DNA from: Acidimicrobiales bacterium
GTDB taxonomy: Bacteria > Actinomycetota > Acidimicrobiia > Acidimicrobiales > SZUA-35
DNA: 64,000 nt
Assembly: GCA_965216685.1 (NCBI GenBank)
Contig: OZ244195.1
Location: 4,896,673-4,960,672, forward strand
Reading direction: 5' to 3'
Under the pieces are notes generated by a model, which was not told the DNA's origin, made no database searches, and was given only the letters and a program-made list of their open reading frames with translations. Made by a program: the position numbers and the translations under genes. Shown piece after piece: positions 8,769-54,587 of the stretch. The number at the start of each line of letters is the position of its first letter. Position 1 is the first letter of the stretch.

Positions 8769-10561
8769 GGCGAGGTCCTGTCGGCCAGCAGCTCGACCGG
8801 GATGTCGACCAGGCGGGCCCTAACCCACTCCCCCAGGCTCTTGGCTTGGCCGTCGAGACGGGTTGATGCCGCCACTCCCTCCTCGAGGATCCCGTGGATC
8901 ACGAAGTTCAGCGACCAGATGTTGGGGAGAGGGTGGCGGTCGATGGCCAGTTCGGCTGTCTCCGGTAGCAGGTGGCGGAGACGATCCGTCGTCATCTCTC
9001 CGGCCAGCCAGCGGTAGCTCTCAGCCGAGCGGGCGAACAGCCCCAGGTTGGCGTTGCCTCCCTTGTCTCCCGACCGGGCTCCGATGATCGTGCCCAGCGG
9101 CACCCGATCGGTCGCACCGGTGAAGGGGGCCGGGGCGGCGTCATCGTGGTCACGCTGGTCGTCGACCGTGGCGGCAAGGGGCGACTCGGGCCCGACGGCC
9201 GACTCCACCACGGTGGTTGCCCCTCCGAGCACGGTGACCTGTTGGGGAACCAGGTCGGCCGGGATCAGGCCCGAGGTGTGGATCCCGAAGGGCTGGGCGA
9301 TCTGGGTGCCGGGCAGGCCGAAGAACCCGGGGATGGAAGCCAAGGCCATATTGTTGAGGGCGGACGCCACCGAACGCACCTTGTTTTCGTCGCCATCCTT
9401 GACGGTGGCCCGCCAGGCGGCGATGGCCTCGTTGTTGGACGCCGGGTCGGGCTTGTCGGTCCGATCAACGGAAATGGACACGGCGGCGAAGTCGTCGGGG
9501 CCGTAAGGCGTGGACCGCCACAGCACCGACTCGGCCAACTCGGCCTTGGCCTCGATGTCGAGCCCGACCAGCGCGACCCGAATATCGCTGCGGTACCCAC
9601 CCCAGCAATTCATCGAGACCTTGAGGGTGGTTGGCGGCGGATTGCCTCGGACACCGCTGATGGCCACCCGGTCGGGCCCGTCCGGGCGAAGCGAGATGGT
9701 GTCGAACCGGGCGGTGACGTCGGGCCCCAGGTAGTCCGGCCCTCCAATCTCGTACAGGAGCTGAGCGGTCACCGTTCCCACCGTCACTCCTCCCCCGGTC
9801 CCCGGATGTTTGCCGATGACGCTTGATCCATCTTCGGCGATGTCGGCGATGGGGAATCCCGGGTTGTCCATACCGTCAAGCTCGGTGAAGAACGAGTAGT
9901 TGCCCCCGGTGGCCTGGGTGCCGCACTCGATCACATGTCCGGCCACCACCGCTCCGGCCAGGCGATCCCAGTCGGTGGGTTGCCAGCGGTGATGCCAGGC
10001 CGCCGGGCCGCAGACGATGGCGGCGTCGGTGGTGCGGCCGGTGACCACGATGTCGGCTCCCTGGTTCAAGGCTTCGACGATGCCCCAACATCCGAGGTAG
10101 GCGTTGGCCGAGATGAAGTCGCCGGGCTCCCCGTCCGCCACCAGAGGTTCAGCGGTCTCGAAATCGACGACCGGTACACCGGCGGCTGCCAGGTCATCGA
10201 GGCGGTCGAGTAGATTGTCGCCGCTCACGTAGGCGACGGTGGGGTTCAGGCCCAGCTTCTCGCCAACCTCGGCCACCGCCTCGGCGCAACGGTCGGGGTC
10301 GAGGCCGCCGGCGTTCGACACCACCTTGATGCCTCGATCGAGACAGGTGCCCATGACCTGTTCCATCTGGGTAACGAAGGTCCGGGCAAACCCGGCCCCC
10401 GGTCGTTTGGCCCTCGTTCGGGCCAGGATCAACATCGTCAGCTCGGCCAGCCAGTCGCCGGTCAGAACGTCGATCGGCCCCCCGTTCACCATGCGAGCGG
10501 CGGCGTCGATCTGGTCGCCGTAGAAGCCCGAGCAGTTGGCGATGCGGATCGCATCATTCAC
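8765..10561 (-). CDS. atuA: Acyclic terpene utilisation AtuA-family protein (DUF1446), long form.
   Basis: IRIANCSGFYGDQIDAAARMVNGGPIDVLTGDWLAELTM, KVVSNAGGLDP, C-terminal GARSGDKGGNANLG. The GTG start at 10561 overlaps the stop of the carboxylase alpha gene (GTGAATGA). Confidence 0.8.
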   Translation of the reverse strand: MNDAIRIANCSGFYGDQIDAAARMVNGGPIDVLTGDWLAELTMLILARTRAKRPGAGFARTFVTQMEQVMGTCLDRGIKVVSNAGGLDPDRCAEAVAEVGEKLGLNPTVAYVSGDNLLDRLDDLAAAGVPVVDFETAEPLVADGEPGDFISANAYLGCWGIVEALNQGADIVVTGRTTDAAIVCGPAAWHHRWQPTDWDRLAGAVVAGHVIECGTQATGGNYSFFTELDGMDNPGFPIADIAEDGSSVIGKHPGTGGGVTVGTVTAQLLYEIGGPDYLGPDVTARFDTISLRPDGPDRVAISGVRGNPPPTTLKVSMNCWGGYRSDIRVALVGLDIEAKAELAESVLWRSTPYGPDDFAAVSISVDRTDKPDPASNNEAIAAWRATVKDGDENKVRSVASALNNMALASIPGFFGLPGTQIAQPFGIHTSGLIPADLVPQQVTVLGGATTVVESAVGPESPLAATVDDQRDHDDAAPAPFTGATDRVPLGTIIGARSGDKGGNANLGLFARSAESYRWLAGEMTTDRLRHLLPETAELAIDRHPLPNIWSLNFVIHGILEEGVAASTRLDGQAKSLGEWVRARLVDIPVELLADRTSP

Positions 10562-12545
10562 GAGACGTCTCACTGCTCTCGTCGCTACCGCCACTGTCGA
10601 CGACCGTGACCAGGGCCGCACCCCGCCCGACCTGCTGCCCTTCGGTCACCGTCACCGCGGTGACGGTGCCGGCAAACGGAGCGCCGACGTGGTGTTCCAT
10701 CTTCATGGCCTCCAGCACGACCAGTACCTGCCCGGCGACCACACTGTCGCCCACGGTGCAGCGAACCTCGACCACCGATCCCGGCATCGGGGCCGTCAGC
10801 CCGCCGGTCGGGGCCTCCGAGCCCGGAATGGTGAACCGGGGCACGAGATCGAGGCTGACGGTCGTTGTCGATGTCTGCACGTGCAGCCGGTCGGATCCGG
10901 CCGTGATCAGATGACGGCGTCTGACGCCGTCGACCAGCAGCTCGACGTGGTCGGCGTCGCAGGACACCACCCTGACGGTCTCTCCCGACTCCAGGGTGAA
11001 CACGCCCTGGCGGTCGGCCCGATAGGCCACAGTGATGGTGCCGGGCCCGGCATCGTCACCATCGACGCTCGGGTCCACGAACTCGATCCGTTCCGGCGGT
11101 AGTCCGGCGTTGCGCCAGTTCGACGGAGCGAAGCCCCACAAGTCGTCGGCTCGTCGGTTGTGGTGCTGTAGCCACAGGGCGGCGGCGACGGCGGCCGCGT
11201 GTATCTCCGTCGGGTCGATGGCGGCTGGGAGCTCAACCCGGTCGATGAAATCGGTTGTGGTGTCGCCCGCTCCGAACTCCGGGCTCGACAACAGCGAAAC
11301 CAGGTGGTCGCGGTTGGTGATGAGCCCACCGAGGTGCAGCCGTTGCAGGGCCAGCCGCAACCGGGCGGTCGACTCGGCCCGGTTGGGGCCGTGGGCGATG
11401 ACCTTGGCCAGCATGGGGTCGTAGTCGACGCCGACGATGAATCCGGCTTCGATGCCCGAGTCCCAGCGCACCGCCGGCTCATCGGGGGGCCGCCAGGCCT
11501 CCACTGTTCCGGTGGCAGGAAGAAAGCCGTTGGCCGCATCCTCGGCGTACAGGCGGACCTCGACAGCATGTCCGGTTGTCGACACGTCACCTTGGCCCAG
11601 ATCGAGCGGCGACCCGGCGGCGATACGCAACTGCTGGGCGACGAGATCGAGCCCGGTGACGGCTTCGGTCACCGGGTGTTCGACCTGAAGCCGAGTATTC
11701 ACCTCCAAGAAGAAGAACCGGCCGCTGTCATCGTCGAGCAGGAATTCGACCGTGCCGGCCGACTGGTAGCCGATCGAGCGGGCCAGAGCAACGGCGGCCG
11801 AGCCGATGGCCTCACGAAGACCAGGGTCGAGTCGGCTCGACGGCGCCTCCTCCACGATCTTCTGGTGCCGCCGCTGGATGGAACACTCCCGTTCCCCCAG
11901 ATGGATGAGGTTGCCGTGACTGTCGCCCAGAATCTGGATCTCGATGTGACGAGACCGACGCACGTAGCGTTCGAGGAAGACCCGGTCGTCGCCGAACGCT
12001 CCTGCCGCCTCTCGACGGGCGGCGGACACGGCATCATCCAGCTCGTCGGGCGATTCCACCAGTCGCATGCCCTTACCCCCGCCCCCGGCCGCTGCTTTGA
12101 CCAGGAGAGGGAAACCAACGGCGGCGGCGTGAGACACCTCCGTGCTGGAGGGCAAGGTCGGGACGCCGGCCGCCTCGGCCGCCTTCTTGGCCGCAATCTT
12201 GTCTCCCATGGCTTCGATAACAGCCGGGCTCGGACCGATCCAGGTCAGTCCAGCTTCGATGACGGCTTCGGCAAACGATGCGTTCTCGGCCAGAAACCCG
12301 TAGCCGGGATGAACGGCGTCGGCCCCGGTCCGACGGGCGGCCTCGATCACGGCGGCACCGTCGAGATAGCCGGTTTGGAGATGCACGGCCTGGTCGGCCT
12401 CGGCCACGAACGGCGCTCCGGCGTCGGGTTCTGTGAACACGGCCACGGTGGCCAGTCCCGTCTCGGTGGCGGTGGCGAAAATCCGGCGGGCGATCTCCCC
12501 CCGGTTGGCCACCAGCAGCGAACGTATTGGTCGGGTTGGGCTCAT
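10554..12545 (-). CDS. Biotin-dependent acyl-CoA carboxylase alpha subunit (biotin carboxylase + BCCP; AtuF/MccA-like).
   Basis: LLVANRGEIARRI, GGGGKGMR, EVNTRLQVEHPVTE, and the biotinyl-Lys motif LEAMKMEH near the C-terminus. Confidence 0.9.
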   Translation of the reverse strand: MSPTRPIRSLLVANRGEIARRIFATATETGLATVAVFTEPDAGAPFVAEADQAVHLQTGYLDGAAVIEAARRTGADAVHPGYGFLAENASFAEAVIEAGLTWIGPSPAVIEAMGDKIAAKKAAEAAGVPTLPSSTEVSHAAAVGFPLLVKAAAGGGGKGMRLVESPDELDDAVSAARREAAGAFGDDRVFLERYVRRSRHIEIQILGDSHGNLIHLGERECSIQRRHQKIVEEAPSSRLDPGLREAIGSAAVALARSIGYQSAGTVEFLLDDDSGRFFFLEVNTRLQVEHPVTEAVTGLDLVAQQLRIAAGSPLDLGQGDVSTTGHAVEVRLYAEDAANGFLPATGTVEAWRPPDEPAVRWDSGIEAGFIVGVDYDPMLAKVIAHGPNRAESTARLRLALQRLHLGGLITNRDHLVSLLSSPEFGAGDTTTDFIDRVELPAAIDPTEIHAAAVAAALWLQHHNRRADDLWGFAPSNWRNAGLPPERIEFVDPSVDGDDAGPGTITVAYRADRQGVFTLESGETVRVVSCDADHVELLVDGVRRRHLITAGSDRLHVQTSTTTVSLDLVPRFTIPGSEAPTGGLTAPMPGSVVEVRCTVGDSVVAGQVLVVLEAMKMEHHVGAPFAGTVTAVTVTEGQQVGRGAALVTVVDSGGSDESSETSRE

Positions 12546-45747: not shown

Positions 45748-46314
45748 CTAAGCGGCTTGGGACACCCGGATCAGGGTGGGGTTGGCCAGCATATCGAACA
45801 CGGCGCTCCGCTTGCACGAGGCCTGGACCAGCGCTTCCAGTTCCTCGGCCGTTCCGTCACCGTCGATGTCGACCGAGACGTCGATCGATTGATAGCCGTT
45901 ACGGACGTCTCCGTCGATACCGAGTACGCCCCGCACGTCGATGGTGCCCCGGACGACGGTGTCGATCGACCTGAGCTCGACGCCACGGTTGGCCGCCGTG
46001 GTGGCGACCCCGGCGACAATACAGCCGGCCAGAGCGTGCAGGACATACTCCTGGGGGGTGGGCCCGTGGCCGTGGCCCAGGGTCGGATGGTCGGCGCCGA
46101 AGCTGAACTCCTGGACGTGGAGATGGCCGCCACCGGCGCCGTACCACTCGTGGATGGTGGAACGGGAACCGGTTCCCTCGATCCAGGTGTTGCGGGCCGT
46201 GAATCGGAACTCGGCCAGCTCGGGGTTCTCGGTGACCTTGGCGATGGTGCCCCGGAGCTTGTCGACGGGGACGCCGTTGAACTCGTTGACGGCAGTGGTC
46301 GTGGCGGTTGTCAT
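45748..46314 (-). CDS. OsmC/Ohr-family peroxiredoxin-like protein.
   Basis: Trimmed to MTTATTTAVNEF. Motifs: GPTPQEYVLHALAGCIVAG and LVQASCKRSAVFDML (paired Cys). Confidence 0.8.
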   Translation of the reverse strand: MTTATTTAVNEFNGVPVDKLRGTIAKVTENPELAEFRFTARNTWIEGTGSRSTIHEWYGAGGGHLHVQEFSFGADHPTLGHGHGPTPQEYVLHALAGCIVAGVATTAANRGVELRSIDTVVRGTIDVRGVLGIDGDVRNGYQSIDVSVDIDGDGTAEELEALVQASCKRSAVFDMLANPTLIRVSQAA

Positions 46315-46422
46315 GTCGGAATCCTTCTTCGTGAGTTTCTGTCGGTTTGTCTGTATGACAGTCATCGTCGACGAAGTCGGGCTTCAGAACTTGGAGAGGA
46401 TGTGGAGAGTGTCTGAAGATCG

Positions 46423-48797: not shown

Positions 48798-49604
48798 TCA
48801 GGCGACCACGGTTCCGAACAGGTTGCCGATGCCGTAGGTGACGATGGAGGCGGCCAGCACAATGGCCAGCTGACGAAGGGCACCGGGAACGGCTGATCGT
48901 CCGGCTGATCGGCTGACCCAGCCGCCCACAATCAAACTGGCCAAGGCAGTGGCGGACACCGAGATGGCGATGGCGGCGGCCCCGCTCGTGATGAACCACG
49001 GAGCCAGTGGCACGATGGCGCCCACGGTGAACAGACCGAACGACGACACGGCGGCCACCGTTGGAGACCCGACCTCGTCGGGATCGAACCCGAAGACGGT
49101 GCGGGCCGTGAAGTCGATGAACCGCTGACTCTCCAGCGGCAGCTCGGTGGAGACTCGCTGGGCGGTGTCGGTGGCCAGTCCGCTGTCCTCCAGCTTGGAG
49201 GTCAGCTCATCGAGCAGTAGACCCGGGTTCCGGCGGGCCAGTCGGTGCATCTCCTCGACGATGCCTTCGAACAACTCGACCTGGCTGCGAACCGAGATCC
49301 ACTCGCCGGCGGCCATGGAGAAGGCCCCGGCAATGAGACTGGCCAGGCCGGCCAGCCGTACCTCGGCCACTCCCGAGGATGCGCCGGCCACGGCCAGGAT
49401 CAAGCAGACATTGGTGACGAGGCCGTCGTTCACTCCCAGCACCGCGGCCCGGGCTGCTCCTCGGGTGACCGAGGTGACCCGTTCTTGCAGGTGCCGGGCG
49501 TCTGACGCCCCATCGTCGACGTGGGGTCGGGCGGTGGTGGTGTAGGGCTGATTGGTGCCAGCCGGTTCCGCCACGGTTGGCTCAGTCACCGTCGGTTCAG
49601 ACAT
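48798..49604 (-). CDS. VIT1/CCC1-family Fe/Mn transporter.
   Basis: AAVLGVNDGLVTNVCLILAVAG, SMAAGEWISV, and C-terminal TM cluster. ATG 49604 overlaps the peroxiredoxin stop by 8 nt (ATGTCTGA). The N-terminus has a TVTEP/TVAEP duplication. Confidence 0.8.
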   Translation of the reverse strand: MSEPTVTEPTVAEPAGTNQPYTTTARPHVDDGASDARHLQERVTSVTRGAARAAVLGVNDGLVTNVCLILAVAGASSGVAEVRLAGLASLIAGAFSMAAGEWISVRSQVELFEGIVEEMHRLARRNPGLLLDELTSKLEDSGLATDTAQRVSTELPLESQRFIDFTARTVFGFDPDEVGSPTVAAVSSFGLFTVGAIVPLAPWFITSGAAAIAISVSATALASLIVGGWVSRSAGRSAVPGALRQLAIVLAASIVTYGIGNLFGTVVA

Positions 49605-50079
49605 TGTCGGTTGGCCGCCCGCCCATTGCCTGCTCGACATCGGCTACCACTGCGTCGGCATGGCGGGCCACGTCGGTCACGTCGTAGGCCCGGCGAATAA
49701 TCCCCTCGGGATCGATCAGATAGCTGTGGCGACGGGCGAAGGCGGCAAACTTGTCGGTTGGAAGTCGGGCCACGTCATAGGCCAGACCGGCCGAATGGTC
49801 GACATCGCTGAGCAGACGAAACGGGAAGCTCTGGGCCAGGGCGAACGCCCGGTTCTCTTCGGGTGGGTCGAACGAGGCGCCGAGGACGACCACGCCCAAC
49901 TCGTCCAGACGATCGGACCTGTCACGCAGGGCCTGCCCTTCGATCGTTCAACCCGGTGTGGCCGCCTTCGGGTACCACCACAACAGCACCCACTGGCCGC
50001 GCAGATCGGCCAGGCGAACGGTGTCACCGTTCTGGTCGGGGAGCTCAAACTGGGGCGCTGGTTGTCCTGGTGTCAGCAT
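49597..50079 (-). CDS. PrxQ/BCP-type peroxiredoxin with in-frame TGA at the peroxidatic Cys position (candidate selenoprotein, otherwise a pseudogene).
   Basis: ORFs 49948..50139 and 49597..49899 are in the same frame, separated only by TGA 49948-49950. The joined product reads MLTPGQPAPQFELPDQNGDTVRLADLRGQWVLLWWYPKAATPG-U-TIEGQALRDRSDRLDELGVVVLGASFDPPEENRAF...RHSYLIDPEG. An alternative GTG start lies at 50139. Confidence 0.65.
49909..49947 (-). promoter_or_regulatory. Candidate bacterial SECIS-like stem-loop directly 3' of the in-frame UGA.
   Basis: In the mRNA, ACGAUCG (+4..+10) pairs with CGAUCGU (+36..+42). The upper stem is GCCCUG/CAGGUC with one mismatch, and the apical loop is CGUGA. 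Folded by hand only. Confidence 0.4.
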
Positions 50080-50135
50080 GTGCCATCGGGGTCGGAAGCA
50101 GGGGCCTCGGATTCTACCGCCGGGCCTCCACTGGT

Positions 50136-50993
50136 TCACCCTCGACGTCGGGCCAGCCGGGCGGCCTCGGCCACGGCTTCCAGGGCCTCGCCGTCGTGGG
50201 GGTCGTGGAGTGCTATCAGCAGCTGATCAACCCCGCAGTCGGCCAGCTCGGCCATCTTCTGGGCCGCATCGTCGGGTGTTCCGATCAGGGCCCGCTCGAA
50301 GACCCGATCCAGGTCCTCTCCTGCTCGTTCCTCTCGTACCCGACTGAGCAGCTTGTCGACATTGCCGCCGTCGAGGGCGACAAAGCCGTCGATCTCCAGT
50401 GATGTCGGCAGGCGACGTTGGTGACCGGTCAGCCGGCGCATTCGCTCGAACTGCTCGGTGAACTCGGCAGGGGTGCAGAACGACGTCTCCCACCGATCGG
50501 CCCACCTCGCGGCCAGCGCCACGGCCCGTGCTCCCCGGGCGGCGACGGTGACCGGTAACGGTGCACCATCGCCGCCCAGTGAGGTCCACAACCGCGGGAG
50601 CTCGCTCAGCGCCGTTTCCAGATCGTCGAGACGCCGGCCGTAGTCGGGATACTCGACTCCGTAGGGCTCCCACCACCGCCGGGCGGCCGGGGCGGCGGCA
50701 CCGGCTCCGGTGCGCAGATCGACCCTGGTACCGGCGATGGCGGCCACCGTGGCCGCCTGCTTGGCCAACAGCAACAGGCTGCGATACGAAGGCAGGATGT
50801 TGGTTATGACCGGACCGAGTCGAATGTGTTCGGTCGAGGCGGCCAGCCCGGCCAGGGTGGTCCAGCAGTCGAGGTTGAGTCCGTGGGGTGACTCGCCGTA
50901 GTAGAGGGCGTCAATGCCGAGCGACTCGGCCCGCCGGCAGGTGGCCAGCACCTGATCGAACCGGGCCGACCACACCTCCAGCGCGATTCTCAT
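50136..50993 (-). CDS. LLM-class (luciferase-like) flavin/F420-dependent oxidoreductase.
   Basis: GIDALYYGESPHG, LGPVITNILPSYRS, TIM-barrel LLM pattern. ATGA overlap with the upstream GNAT gene. Confidence 0.75.
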   Translation of the reverse strand: MRIALEVWSARFDQVLATCRRAESLGIDALYYGESPHGLNLDCWTTLAGLAASTEHIRLGPVITNILPSYRSLLLLAKQAATVAAIAGTRVDLRTGAGAAAPAARRWWEPYGVEYPDYGRRLDDLETALSELPRLWTSLGGDGAPLPVTVAARGARAVALAARWADRWETSFCTPAEFTEQFERMRRLTGHQRRLPTSLEIDGFVALDGGNVDKLLSRVREERAGEDLDRVFERALIGTPDDAAQKMAELADCGVDQLLIALHDPHDGEALEAVAEAARLARRRG

Positions 50994-51821: not shown

Positions 51822-52217
51822 TCACTCTTCGGCCGTCGCCTCGATCTCGAACATCAACGAAGGCAGGGCAAGTCGAGACACACCGAGTAACGTCATCGGC
51901 GGCGCCGCCCCAAGCGGACCGAATCGGCTGCCGATGACGTCGAAGTTTTCCAATGCCTCGTCGACGTCGGTGACGAAGACGGCCAGCCGGGTTACGTTGG
52001 CCAGACCCATGTCGGCGGCTCTGAGCACGGTCTCGAGGTTGTCGAGAGCAAGGGTGATCTGGGCTCGCATGTCACCATCGTGTTGCGGATTGCCGTCGGC
52101 GTCGACCGAGGTCTGGCCGGCACACGTCACTCGACGGGTGGTCCCCTCGACAATCTCTGCTTGGTTGTATCCGAACCGCAGCGACCACGGCCACGGATTG
52201 ACGAGCGTTCGATTCAT
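51822..52217 (-). CDS. RidA/YjgF-family protein.
   Basis: CAGQTSVDADGN, QITLALDNLETVL, VTRLAVFVTD, MFEIEATA. Confidence 0.8.
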   Translation of the reverse strand: MNRTLVNPWPWSLRFGYNQAEIVEGTTRRVTCAGQTSVDADGNPQHDGDMRAQITLALDNLETVLRAADMGLANVTRLAVFVTDVDEALENFDVIGSRFGPLGAAPPMTLLGVSRLALPSLMFEIEATAEE

Positions 52218-52298: not shown

Positions 52299-53027
52299 GT
52301 GGTGAGGCCGGCAGAACGCCATCATGAACTGATTCGGCTGCTGCGGCTGCGGGCCGACTGGCGTACAGAGGATCTGGCCCGGGAACTGCATGTGTCCACT
52401 CGCACCATCTTGCGAGACCTCGATCGACTTCGTGGTCGAGGATTCGAGATCTCGTCGATGTCGGGGCCGGGCGGAGGAGTCCACCTCGAGCCAACATCGG
52501 TTCTCGTGACCCCACAACTCGACGGAGACGACGTCGTCGCCCTGATCCTGTCGGCTGCCATCGCCCAAGCTTTCCCGTGGATCCCGTTCGCATCAGGAGC
52601 GCAGTCGGCCCTGGCGAAGATAGAGGCCTCGTTGCCGTATGAACGAGCACGCCAGGTCCAGGCTCTCATGATGCGCATCCTTGTCGGCGAACCAGCACCG
52701 GCATCGGTGCGACAGCAGCGCACTGTCAACCCCTTTCTGGCCCGACTCTTCGAGCTGGCCTTCAGTGAGGATCGCCTGCTGACATTCGAGTATCAGGACC
52801 GCAGCGGTAGAAAATCGCGCCGTGTCGTCGAACCCCACGGCCTGCTGGTCCGGGCACCAATATGGTATGTGATCGCATGGGACACCACGGTCGACGAATC
52901 TCGGCTCTTCCGGGCCGACCGTATTCGGTCACCCCATGTGATGACGCAGCAGTTCCGGCCCAGACCACACGAAGTCATACGAGGGATCTGCCCTGATGCT
53001 CGCCCGGTGAGGACCGACAGCGGCTGA
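52299..53027 (+). CDS. YafY-type transcriptional regulator (HTH + WYL domain).
   Basis: HTH LARELHVSTRTILRDLDRLRGRGFEI. WYL region is FEYQDRSGRKSRRVVEPHGLLVRAPIWYVIAWD...RLFRADRI. Confidence 0.8.
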   Translation: MVRPAERHHELIRLLRLRADWRTEDLARELHVSTRTILRDLDRLRGRGFEISSMSGPGGGVHLEPTSVLVTPQLDGDDVVALILSAAIAQAFPWIPFASGAQSALAKIEASLPYERARQVQALMMRILVGEPAPASVRQQRTVNPFLARLFELAFSEDRLLTFEYQDRSGRKSRRVVEPHGLLVRAPIWYVIAWDTTVDESRLFRADRIRSPHVMTQQFRPRPHEVIRGICPDARPVRTDSG

Positions 53028-53048
53028 ACAGACCATTTGCGGATGTCG

Positions 53049-54026
53049 TTATCCGGTGTCGCCGCTGACGGTGGAGCGGAACTTGGCCATGAGGTGGGCC
53101 CCGGCCAGAACCGGCTGATAGCGAGGTTGCCGGCCGGAGGCCACGATGCACTCAACCCGGGCGTCCCAGTTGGCGTTGTGGAAGAACGGCATCGTCAGCC
53201 GCCGATGCCCGTGACGGCCGGGCGGCACCACGACCCGATGCATCGTGGAGCGCCAGCGATCATTGGTCCAGCGTTCCATCAGGTCCCCGAGGTTGACCAC
53301 GAACGCACCAGTGGGAGCGTCGACGTCGAGCCAGGTACCGTCATCGGTCTGGACCTGCAGTCCTGGTTCGGCGTCGAGACGAAGTATGGTCAGCGTGCCG
53401 TAGTCGGTGTGGGCGCCGGCCCGGAGCCGATCGGCGGGCGGTGGACCCGACAGGGCCGGATAGTGGGCCAGCCGCAGCGCCGAGGTGTGATGGTCGATGA
53501 ACGGATCGAACCAGCGGGCTCCCAGCCCGAGGGCCGTTCCAAATGCCGCCATCAGCCGGGCCGCCAGGCCGGAAAGTGCCCGGTAGTAGGCCTCCAGCGG
53601 CGGTCTCAGGTCGGGCATGGCCGAGGGCCAGATCGTGGGAGCCCAAACGGCGCGCTCGTCGTCATCGACCATCTCGGCCGGCGGCCGGGGTGGGCTGTCG
53701 ACCGGGCCGACGTTGTAGGTTTCCTTGAGGTCGGGCGCTCCGACCCCGCCGATCGAGCGGTTGAGTGCTTCGACCGAGAACGGCACATAGCCGTAGGGGT
53801 AGTGGGGGTACGGTTTGGCCGCCGTCAGTCGGTCCGACTCCGGCAGGTCGAAGAACGCAAGGGCGGCGCTGTGGGCCTGGGCGACCGTGGATTCGGGCAC
53901 ACCGTGGCCGGTGACGGCGAAGAAGCCGATCCGGCGGCAGGCCTGGTCGAGCTCGGCCCCGGCGGCGGCCCGAACCTGGTCATCGGCGCTCTCGAACCTG
54001 GTGAGGTCGACCAGGGGAACGCTCAC
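53049..54026 (-). CDS. 2-oxoglutarate/Fe(II)-dependent oxygenase (isopenicillin-N-synthase-like).
   Basis: GFFAVTGHGV, GAHTDYGTLTIL (HxD), WRSTMHRVV (distal His/Arg). Confidence 0.8.
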   Translation of the reverse strand: MSVPLVDLTRFESADDQVRAAAGAELDQACRRIGFFAVTGHGVPESTVAQAHSAALAFFDLPESDRLTAAKPYPHYPYGYVPFSVEALNRSIGGVGAPDLKETYNVGPVDSPPRPPAEMVDDDERAVWAPTIWPSAMPDLRPPLEAYYRALSGLAARLMAAFGTALGLGARWFDPFIDHHTSALRLAHYPALSGPPPADRLRAGAHTDYGTLTILRLDAEPGLQVQTDDGTWLDVDAPTGAFVVNLGDLMERWTNDRWRSTMHRVVVPPGRHGHRRLTMPFFHNANWDARVECIVASGRQPRYQPVLAGAHLMAKFRSTVSGDTG

Positions 54027-54062
54027 CGCTCGACCCCCTTCATGGTCGCTGAGCCCAGCGTC

Positions 54063-54560
54063 CTAGGCCCGTTCAATCCTGCGCAACCCGTTGTCCGCAG
54101 TCCACCATTCGACGGCCAGCATCGTGGCCTCGTCGTTGAGCCCGGTGATCACGACCTCGTCGATGTCGGCCAGGAACCACTCGCCCTGGGGTTCGGCGGC
54201 GTCATCGGCGTTGGCATCGAGGTCGCCCAGGTCGTGGGCGAAGATCGGTCCGCCGGGAATGGCCCGACCGCCGATCTTGGCTTCGCCCGACCACTCCGAC
54301 TCCTTGCCCTGCTCAGGGTGGAACGTGGGGCCGTGGAGAGCAAACCGAGCATCACGGTGCAGGTCGGCACCCTTGCGGGAATCCGGCATCGAACCGAATC
54401 GAAGGTCACCGTCGACGAACTCACACTCGATCCCCGAGATTCGGGGCGATCCGTCGGCCCGCAGGGTGGCGATCGTCTTGTGTCGACCGGCATCGAACAG
54501 TTGGCGCACCCGACCGGCGAACTCCGGCTCGGCCTCCTCAATCTCGTTCCATCGGGCCAT
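54063..54560 (-). CDS. Pyridoxamine-5'-phosphate-oxidase-family (FMN/F420-binding split barrel) protein.
   Basis: GRHKTIATLRADGSPRISGIE...ARFALHG. Confidence 0.7.
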   Translation of the reverse strand: MARWNEIEEAEPEFAGRVRQLFDAGRHKTIATLRADGSPRISGIECEFVDGDLRFGSMPDSRKGADLHRDARFALHGPTFHPEQGKESEWSGEAKIGGRAIPGGPIFAHDLGDLDANADDAAEPQGEWFLADIDEVVITGLNDEATMLAVEWWTADNGLRRIERA

Positions 54561-54587
54561 GGACGACCAGCGTAGTACGGCGACCCT

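Follow-up and report, generated by a model that had tools for sequence, protein, structure and literature searches.

The 64-kb window analysed here, that is, the whole 64,000-nucleotide stretch of contig OZ244195.1 from an Acidimicrobiales bacterium, carries on its minus strand a peroxiredoxin gene with a single in-frame UGA codon, and comparison with its orthologues makes it very probable that this is a functional selenoprotein gene, encoding a BCP/PrxQ-type peroxiredoxin in which selenocysteine (Sec, U44) would act as the peroxidatic residue. The UGA is conserved among the orthologues, both halves of the gene are under purifying selection, the hairpin that directly follows the UGA is constrained, the catalytic residues are retained, and the gene forms an operon with a downstream gene of the VIT1 family of iron/manganese transporters.

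Gene structure and predicted protein

The gene runs from an ATG (50079-50077) to a terminal TGA (49599-49597), with only one TGA in frame between them, at codon 44 (49950-49948). Reading through this codon gives WWYPKAATPG-TGA-TIEGQALRD, and a profile search with the readthrough product matches PF00578 (AhpC-TSA) at 113.5 bits (cut-off 26, E=7.6e-33) from end to end, with residues 4–130 covering profile positions 1–123 of 124. The TGA stands in place of the peroxidatic cysteine in the active-site motif P37-K-A-A-T41-P-G-U44, and R117, within ARRHSYLI, aligns with the catalytic arginine of solved BCP/PrxQ structures, including that of Xanthomonas BCP, with both the motif and the arginine aligned to the matching residues of 5iph and 5enu. 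The original prediction, made from the window alone, had placed the TGA exactly at the peroxidatic cysteine of a PxxxTxxC peroxiredoxin and had described the conserved arginine as intact, and the family and structure alignments bear out both points. The window protein contains no cysteine at all.

The start codon at 50079 is backed by 56 orthologues, each of which starts exactly 43 codons before the TGA (53 with ATG and 3 with GTG). The gene had at first been extended to a GTG at 50139, taken from a mechanical list of open reading frames (ORFs), however the orthologues show that this is not the start. The public gene call for the peroxiredoxin is a 98-residue fragment (P0006, NCBI) that matches the window sequence in the region 49597-49899. 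A scan of the window for in-frame TGAs, based on GC content at third codon positions, returned the peroxiredoxin site alone and found no second selenoprotein.

The best NCBIfam and PDB matches of the window peroxiredoxin are enzymes of the BCP/PrxQ type, with scores below the equivalog cut-offs of both the E. coli-type Bcp (NF006960, 111.8 against 140 bits) and the Deinococcus PrxQ (NF053650, 96.7 against 260 bits). As the closest matches are of this type but the scores lie under the cut-offs, the protein is, on its sequence matches, a divergent BCP/PrxQ-type member and not an equivalog. PrxU, which the original prediction had named as an example, does employ Sec as its peroxidatic residue, however the window protein is no relative of it, scoring 54.3 against a cut-off of 270 bits for the PrxU equivalog (NF040737).

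Conservation of the UGA codon and alternation with cysteine

Orthologues were collected by a genome scan restricted to one genome per species, yielding 79 loci (L-numbers denote loci, and P-numbers database proteins), with search patterns derived from Sec-clade sequences. The peroxidatic codon is TGA in 57/57 Acidimicrobiia-type loci that cover it, at 50–77% amino acid identity, a count that is not a Sec:Cys ratio for Acidimicrobiia since the scan patterns came from the Sec clade. Metagenome contigs L001 and L004 (~68% identity) have TGA at the same codon, with an N-terminal part that is intact, in frame, and conserved. Together with the constrained hairpin described below, these loci support the Sec-containing PrxQ/BCP enzyme with a 3' selenocysteine insertion sequence (SECIS) that had been proposed from the window.

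An in-frame stop would ordinarily be read as a recent nonsense mutation of TGC or TGT to TGA, or as a base-call error, as the original prediction had allowed. Such an explanation has a negligible probability given that the same TGA at codon 44 is shared by ~60 independent assemblies from different studies, across 50–77% protein identity, and nonsense mutation, sequencing error, and a split gene are all refuted by the conservation of the TGA, of the coding constraint, and of the start position. Nucleotide diversity at codon positions 1, 2, and 3 is 0.27, 0.21, and 0.49 over the 43 codons that precede the TGA, and 0.26, 0.29, and 0.47 downstream of it, with a mean amino acid identity to the window of 72% for the upstream, N-terminal part; both halves of the gene are thus under purifying selection.

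A protein database search, which did not use the Sec-clade patterns, showed both forms of the enzyme to be common, with full-length cysteine forms at ~60–64% identity, and dozens of fragments of 91–112 residues that correspond to the C-terminal 56–69% of the query at 61–74% identity. The fragments (P0006 and P0058-P0119) are closer to the query than the cysteine forms, and many begin two codons past the cysteine position. The codon is TGC or TGT in 19 homologous loci, among them the VIT1-linked orthologues L084 and L086, and likewise in distant homologues from Binatia, delta-proteobacteria, Thermoanaerobaculaceae, and Solimonas. The closest cysteine forms, P0001 and P0018, are positional orthologues, as a VIT1 gene directly follows each. 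The comparison of orthologues that had been proposed as a check on Cys/Sec alternation therefore yields both a conserved TGA and cysteine-encoding positional orthologues, and a UGA at the redox cysteine that alternates with cysteine among orthologues is the signature of Sec. A neighbour-joining tree of ~150 residues, which is rough and indicative, interleaves cysteine and Sec lineages, and this interleaving suggests several Sec/Cys switches among the orthologues.

Sec forms devoid of any cysteine make up 47/56 of those compared. In L084 and L085 (P0001), the closest cysteine-form orthologue, a second cysteine lies nine residues past the peroxidatic one (GCTIEGQGLRDCS); this is a possible resolving cysteine, absent from the Sec forms, and the change between Sec and cysteine chemistry may be linked to a change in recycling mechanism.

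A SECIS-like hairpin 3' of the UGA

Bacterial SECIS (bSECIS) elements are described by a loop of 3–9 nt that has a G within its first two positions, usually followed by G or U, an upper stem of 4–16 bp, a UGA-to-loop distance of 16–37 nt, and a fold energy of ≤ −7.5 kcal/mol (PMC13188914). Unconstrained folding of the 48 nt 3' of the codon, sequence by sequence, places the start of the loop at +22 in the minimum free energy (MFE) fold of 57/63 distinct Sec-form sequences, compared with 0/18 cysteine forms, with the Sec-form loops reading CGUGA or the close variants CGUGC, CGUGAC, CGUGAUC, and CGGGAU. As a control, synonymous codons were resampled according to the codon usage of the genes themselves whilst keeping the peptide, with the +22 loop present in 90% of the real Sec sequences against 5% of 2,360 resamples, and a local fold energy of −11.2 kcal/mol for the real sequences against −7.9 ± 3.0 kcal/mol for the resampled ones. 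The arginine codon that supplies the G-U of the loop is CGT in 59/59 Sec forms, compared with a share of 13% for CGT among the arginine codons elsewhere in these genes, and is CGC in 15/19 cysteine forms. Compensatory stem variants are present in the alignment (GGCACUG/CAGUGCC, GGCGCUG/CAGCGCC, GGCGUUG/CAACGCC, and GGCCUUG/CAAGGCC), and the clade has two stem registers, a contiguous 7-bp stem and a stem of 3+4 bp with a bulged base.

The lower stem of the window hairpin pairs ACGAUC (49947-49942) with GAUCGU (49914-49909), and the upper stem pairs GG.CCUG (49933-49927) with CAGG.CC (49921-49915), leaving one C.U mismatch, which is due to the replacement of Ala (GCC) by Ser (TCC). The apical loop, CGUGA (49926-49922), occupies +22 to +26 after the UGA. 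With a loop of 5 nt, G-U at loop positions 2–3, a spacing of 21 nt, an upper stem of 4 contiguous pairs plus 2 beyond the mismatch, and an energy of −10.8 to −11.1 kcal/mol, the hairpin lies within all of the bSECIS limits.

Sec forms of the same peroxiredoxin subfamily were also observed outside Actinomycetota, in L060 (a Planctomycetaceae metagenome-assembled genome, MAG), L067 and L075 (uncultured bacteria), and L079 (a Neomarinimicrobiota MAG). These include low-GC genomes, and their hairpin loops too lie at +22 (CGUGAUC, CGGGAU, CGUGAU), a distribution that points to either an old Sec form or horizontal transfer. In L061 (3131-3190 of the locus, from the long-read MAG contig CAWAEN010000004.1), a 1-nt insertion within the hairpin (GGCGTCTGCGTGA) shifts the frame, and is most likely an assembly indel rather than biology.

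Selenocysteine machinery in the lineage

The original prediction had held Sec usage to be sparse in Actinomycetota, which fails for this lineage. SelD, SelA, and SelB are recorded in Ilumatobacter coccineus, I. nonamiensis, and Ca. Microthrix parvicella (Peng et al., PMC5029168, Tables S1/S2), with 15, 10, and 7 selenoproteins respectively (PMC5029168), and selA, selB, selC, and selD are reported from 84/84 complete Actinomarina genomes (2026 preprint, bioRxiv 10.64898/2026.04.03.716425). We gathered 120 high-GC selA loci from metagenomes by the motif of the pyridoxal phosphate site, and two SelA seeds, chosen because their tetranucleotide usage resembled that of the window, served as queries against the protein database. 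Proteins related to the seeds bear the NCBI name ‘L-seryl-tRNA(Sec) selenium transferase [Acidimicrobiales bacterium]’, and the search matched >8,000 clusters at E<1e-20. Locus L209 contains a selA-selB operon (9237-12205) with overlapping genes, and its SelB has the specific winged-helix domain. At the level of the lineage there is therefore good evidence that the Sec machinery is present.

The Acidimicrobiales loci L209, L170, and L183 encode a SelA of 419 residues and a SelB of 573 residues (614 residues in E. coli), with no tRNA-Sec gene adjacent, whereas a tRNA-SeC gene lies beside selA in the actinomycete-type loci L196, L167, L169, and L131. L209 also encodes a 106-residue HesB-like protein (PF01521), a family that includes selenoproteins. 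A 41-residue Thioredoxin_3 gene in L001 was considered as a truncated selenoprotein and ruled out, being a normal CxxC gene.

The conserved UGA and the conserved hairpin would formally also fit readthrough of UGA44 without selenium, by codon reassignment or by a near-cognate cysteine or tryptophan tRNA, with a hairpin that is merely stimulatory, although nothing specific speaks for it. UGA is the terminal stop in 52/61 of the Sec-form genes, that of the window included, and so is not a reassigned codon. The UGA falls exactly at the redox cysteine and alternates with cysteine in orthologues, the G-U of the loop and its spacing are typical of SelB-dependent bSECIS elements, and the lineage has SelA and SelB, rendering selenium-free readthrough highly improbable.

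Observations that weigh against Sec insertion

Several results count against reading the window gene as a working selenoprotein gene. Covariation statistics are weak in tests that assume a single consensus structure, with RNAalifold on the 61-sequence alignment giving a trivial 3-pair structure, and pair counts for either stem register alone being weakly better than those of shuffles. The coexistence of two stem registers accounts for this weakness, and it was because of the weakness that folding of each sequence and synonymous resampling were used. The window hairpin carries its C.U mismatch and ranks 50/62 in stability (constrained energy −11.1 kcal/mol); moreover it is not the MFE structure, as its energy is −10.8 to −11.1 kcal/mol whereas the local MFE is −12.0 to −12.1 kcal/mol, and with more 3' context it is beaten by other folds at −17.5 kcal/mol. 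Thus the stem-loop that had been drawn 3' of the UGA does exist, with its CGUGA loop at +22, but it is not the predicted MFE fold of the window sequence. Lastly, neither the 64-kb window nor 570 kb of related loci yielded selA, selB, selD, or tRNA-Sec in searches by tblastn, for which the E. coli proteins SelA, SelB, and SelD were the queries, and by ARAGORN for the tRNA, and the contig of the window, apparently of 5.39 Mb, is not among the best 120 of >8,000 SelA matches. In four control loci ARAGORN did detect a tRNA-SeC gene next to selA, and it reported no tRNA gene of any kind in the window. An absence of sel genes near the peroxiredoxin is to be expected, as sel genes are unlinked. A scan of the window against Rfam at gathering thresholds gave no match, also an expected result since Rfam has no model for this SECIS.

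These observations could be accommodated by a copy that is decaying or non-functional in this genome, with an ancestral TGA, a weak SECIS or lost machinery, and mostly a 43-residue fragment as its product. The mismatched hairpin, within the weakest quarter of the clade and outcompeted in longer context, the Sec machinery missing from the window, and the public annotation as a 98-residue fragment would all fit such a copy. However, the ORF has no other lesion, with every conserved residue and the VIT1 overlap intact, and fragment calls are the usual outcome of gene callers for any Sec gene. The hairpin still falls within all of the bSECIS limits, the hairpins of orthologues L019, L040, L041, and L042 are no stronger (−10.6 to −11.3 kcal/mol), and stem mismatches also occur in L004, L007, and L043, all of these genes being intact. 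We consider decay improbable. Given the equally weak or mismatched elements of these orthologues, the window hairpin reads as a predicted element at the weak end of the working range and not as one in decay, and it is mainly this weakness that keeps our confidence in Sec insertion from being higher.

Coupling to VIT1 and proposed mechanism

The start codon of the VIT1-family gene (ATG, 49604-49602) lies within the last codons of the peroxiredoxin gene, and the 8-nt overlap noted in the original prediction is confirmed (ATGTCTGA, 49604-49597). The pair with an ATGA-type overlap is found in the Sec loci and in the cysteine orthologues L084 and L085 (ATGA in most loci), and in L086 the pair is present without overlap. 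The conserved stop/start overlap indicates that the two genes are coupled in translation, and so that ribosomes normally pass UGA44. As the genes are translationally coupled, and going by the known roles of both families, the peroxiredoxin and VIT1 probably form a joint module against peroxide and iron (Fenton) stress. One cysteine-form orthologue lies near KatG and Fur genes.

Binding of SelB, incorporation of Sec, the nature of the reductant, and the function in the cell are here inferred, with the mechanism modelled on Sec insertion in E. coli (PMC1794560). During translation, SelB carrying Sec-tRNA(Sec) would bind the hairpin 3' of UGA44 and bring Sec to the ribosome, competing there with release factor 2. 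Elongation would then proceed to the terminal UGA, which has no hairpin. The predicted product is a 160-residue peroxidase of thioredoxin fold, in which a selenolate activated by T41 and R117 would reduce peroxide and be converted to a selenenic acid. Since the protein has no cysteine, an external reductant would be needed to recycle the selenenic acid, making this a putative 1-Sec enzyme.

A more speculative extension, which we regard as doubtful, is that the Sec-peroxiredoxin/VIT1 pair acts as a selenium-gated stress module. Only ribosomes that insert Sec would reach the VIT1 start, such that the levels of peroxidase and iron exporter alike would be set by selenium supply and SelB efficiency, and the repeated Sec/Cys switching would be an adaptation to local selenium among the abundant aerobic Acidimicrobiia of soil, freshwater, and sea.

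Promoter and neighbouring genes

A tentative −10 element was assigned by eye upstream of the peroxiredoxin gene (Table 1), with TAGACT or TAGAGT equally far upstream in L004-L009, the closest relatives; a simple sigma-70 scan made no call at the window hexamer (TAGAAT, 50111-50116). In this subgroup, formed by the window and L004-L009, TAGAAT/TAGACT lies ~31–36 nt upstream of the start, which would give a short leader without an obvious Shine-Dalgarno sequence. Many other orthologues have a −10-like hexamer, (C/T/G)AGA(C/A)T, often after TGG, that ends 6–8 nt before the start (L001, L010, L012-L014, L016-L019, L021, L022, L028, L029, L033, L035, L036, L038, L054, and L059), and its position suggests leaderless mRNAs in these loci.

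OsmC-like proteins are a peroxiredoxin-type family, and an OsmC-like gene lies close to the pair both in the window and in L004 (14878-15441, ~4.6 kb from the pair), which may indicate a wider oxidative-stress neighbourhood. The genes around the peroxiredoxin include RidA-family and WYL/HTH regulator genes, and a luciferase-like protein is also encoded in the neighbourhood.

Table 1. Features of the Sec-peroxiredoxin locus, in window coordinates.
Feature	Position	Strand	Remarks
Predicted Sec-peroxiredoxin gene, BCP/PrxQ type	49597..50079	minus	160 codons + stop, U at codon 44
In-frame UGA, predicted Sec codon	49948..49950	minus	At peroxidatic Cys of P37-x-x-x-T41-x-x-U44
Bacterial SECIS-like hairpin	49909..49947	minus	Constrained fold, directly 3' of UGA
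VIT1-family (iron/manganese transporter) gene	48798..49604	minus	PF01988, E=5e-49
Tentative −10 element TAGAAT	50111..50116	minus	31 nt upstream of ATG, by eye
OsmC-like gene	45748-46365	minus	~3 kb from Sec-peroxiredoxin/VIT1 pair
RidA-family gene	51822-52217		Near peroxiredoxin/VIT1 pair
WYL/HTH regulator gene	52299-53027		Near peroxiredoxin/VIT1 pair
512-residue ORF	53037-54575	plus	No Pfam match at E≤0.001

Significance and comparison with known systems

Across dozens of Acidimicrobiia genomes and metagenomes, public databases contain this gene as fragments of 91–112 residues, and because these gene calls are fragmentary, metabolic reconstructions of a lineage that is very abundant in the environment lack a front-line enzyme of peroxide defence. 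The close cysteine-form orthologues provide a natural set for comparing Sec with cysteine, and for examining what advantage a peroxiredoxin gains from selenium in aerobes. The 61 aligned hairpins could in turn be the starting point of a covariance model for a bacterial SECIS class that is absent from Rfam. Current understanding is not overturned, with Sec-peroxiredoxins already known and the window gene currently mis-annotated, and a specialist would find little surprise here, since the Ilumatobacteraceae are already known to be rich in selenoproteins.

The paradigm of the bacterial SECIS is the E. coli fdhF element. Like the bSECIS consensus of the bSECISearch model, the window element is a stem-loop in the coding region after the UGA, with values within the published ranges, however its sequence is unrelated to that of the E. 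coli elements, and its clade has two stem registers and no Rfam model.

The closest solved structures are those of Xanthomonas campestris BCP/PrxQ (5iph, 5iiz, and 3gkk) and a Burkholderia AhpC/TSA protein (5enu), at E ~2e-20, with YPKxxTPGCT and the catalytic arginine aligning residue by residue with the window peroxiredoxin. These proteins are cysteine enzymes, and that of X. campestris uses a resolving cysteine, whereas the window peroxiredoxin has none. PrxU of Eubacterium acidaminophilum resembles the window protein in the use of Sec as the peroxidatic residue, but belongs to another subfamily, and its host is an anaerobic Firmicute.

Sec-containing peroxiredoxins with a TxxU site are well established, with 12 proteins in a 2006 survey (PMC1794560), 91 proteins in 78 organisms in 2016 (PMC5029168), and a listing in a 2026 review (PMC13188914). 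Our literature search found no published description of the VIT1-linked Acidimicrobiia group. The window peroxiredoxin shares with the peroxiredoxin selenoprotein family (PF00578, PxxxTxxU) its fold family, its motif, and Sec in place of the peroxidatic cysteine, as well as a bSECIS directly 3' of the UGA and the alternation of cysteine and Sec. In contrast, it is of the BCP/PrxQ-type subfamily and comes from the aerobic-lineage Acidimicrobiia, and its group forms a fixed operon with VIT1 and is for the most part free of cysteine, adding to the family a well-supported, cysteine-free (1-Sec) member of the BCP/PrxQ type.

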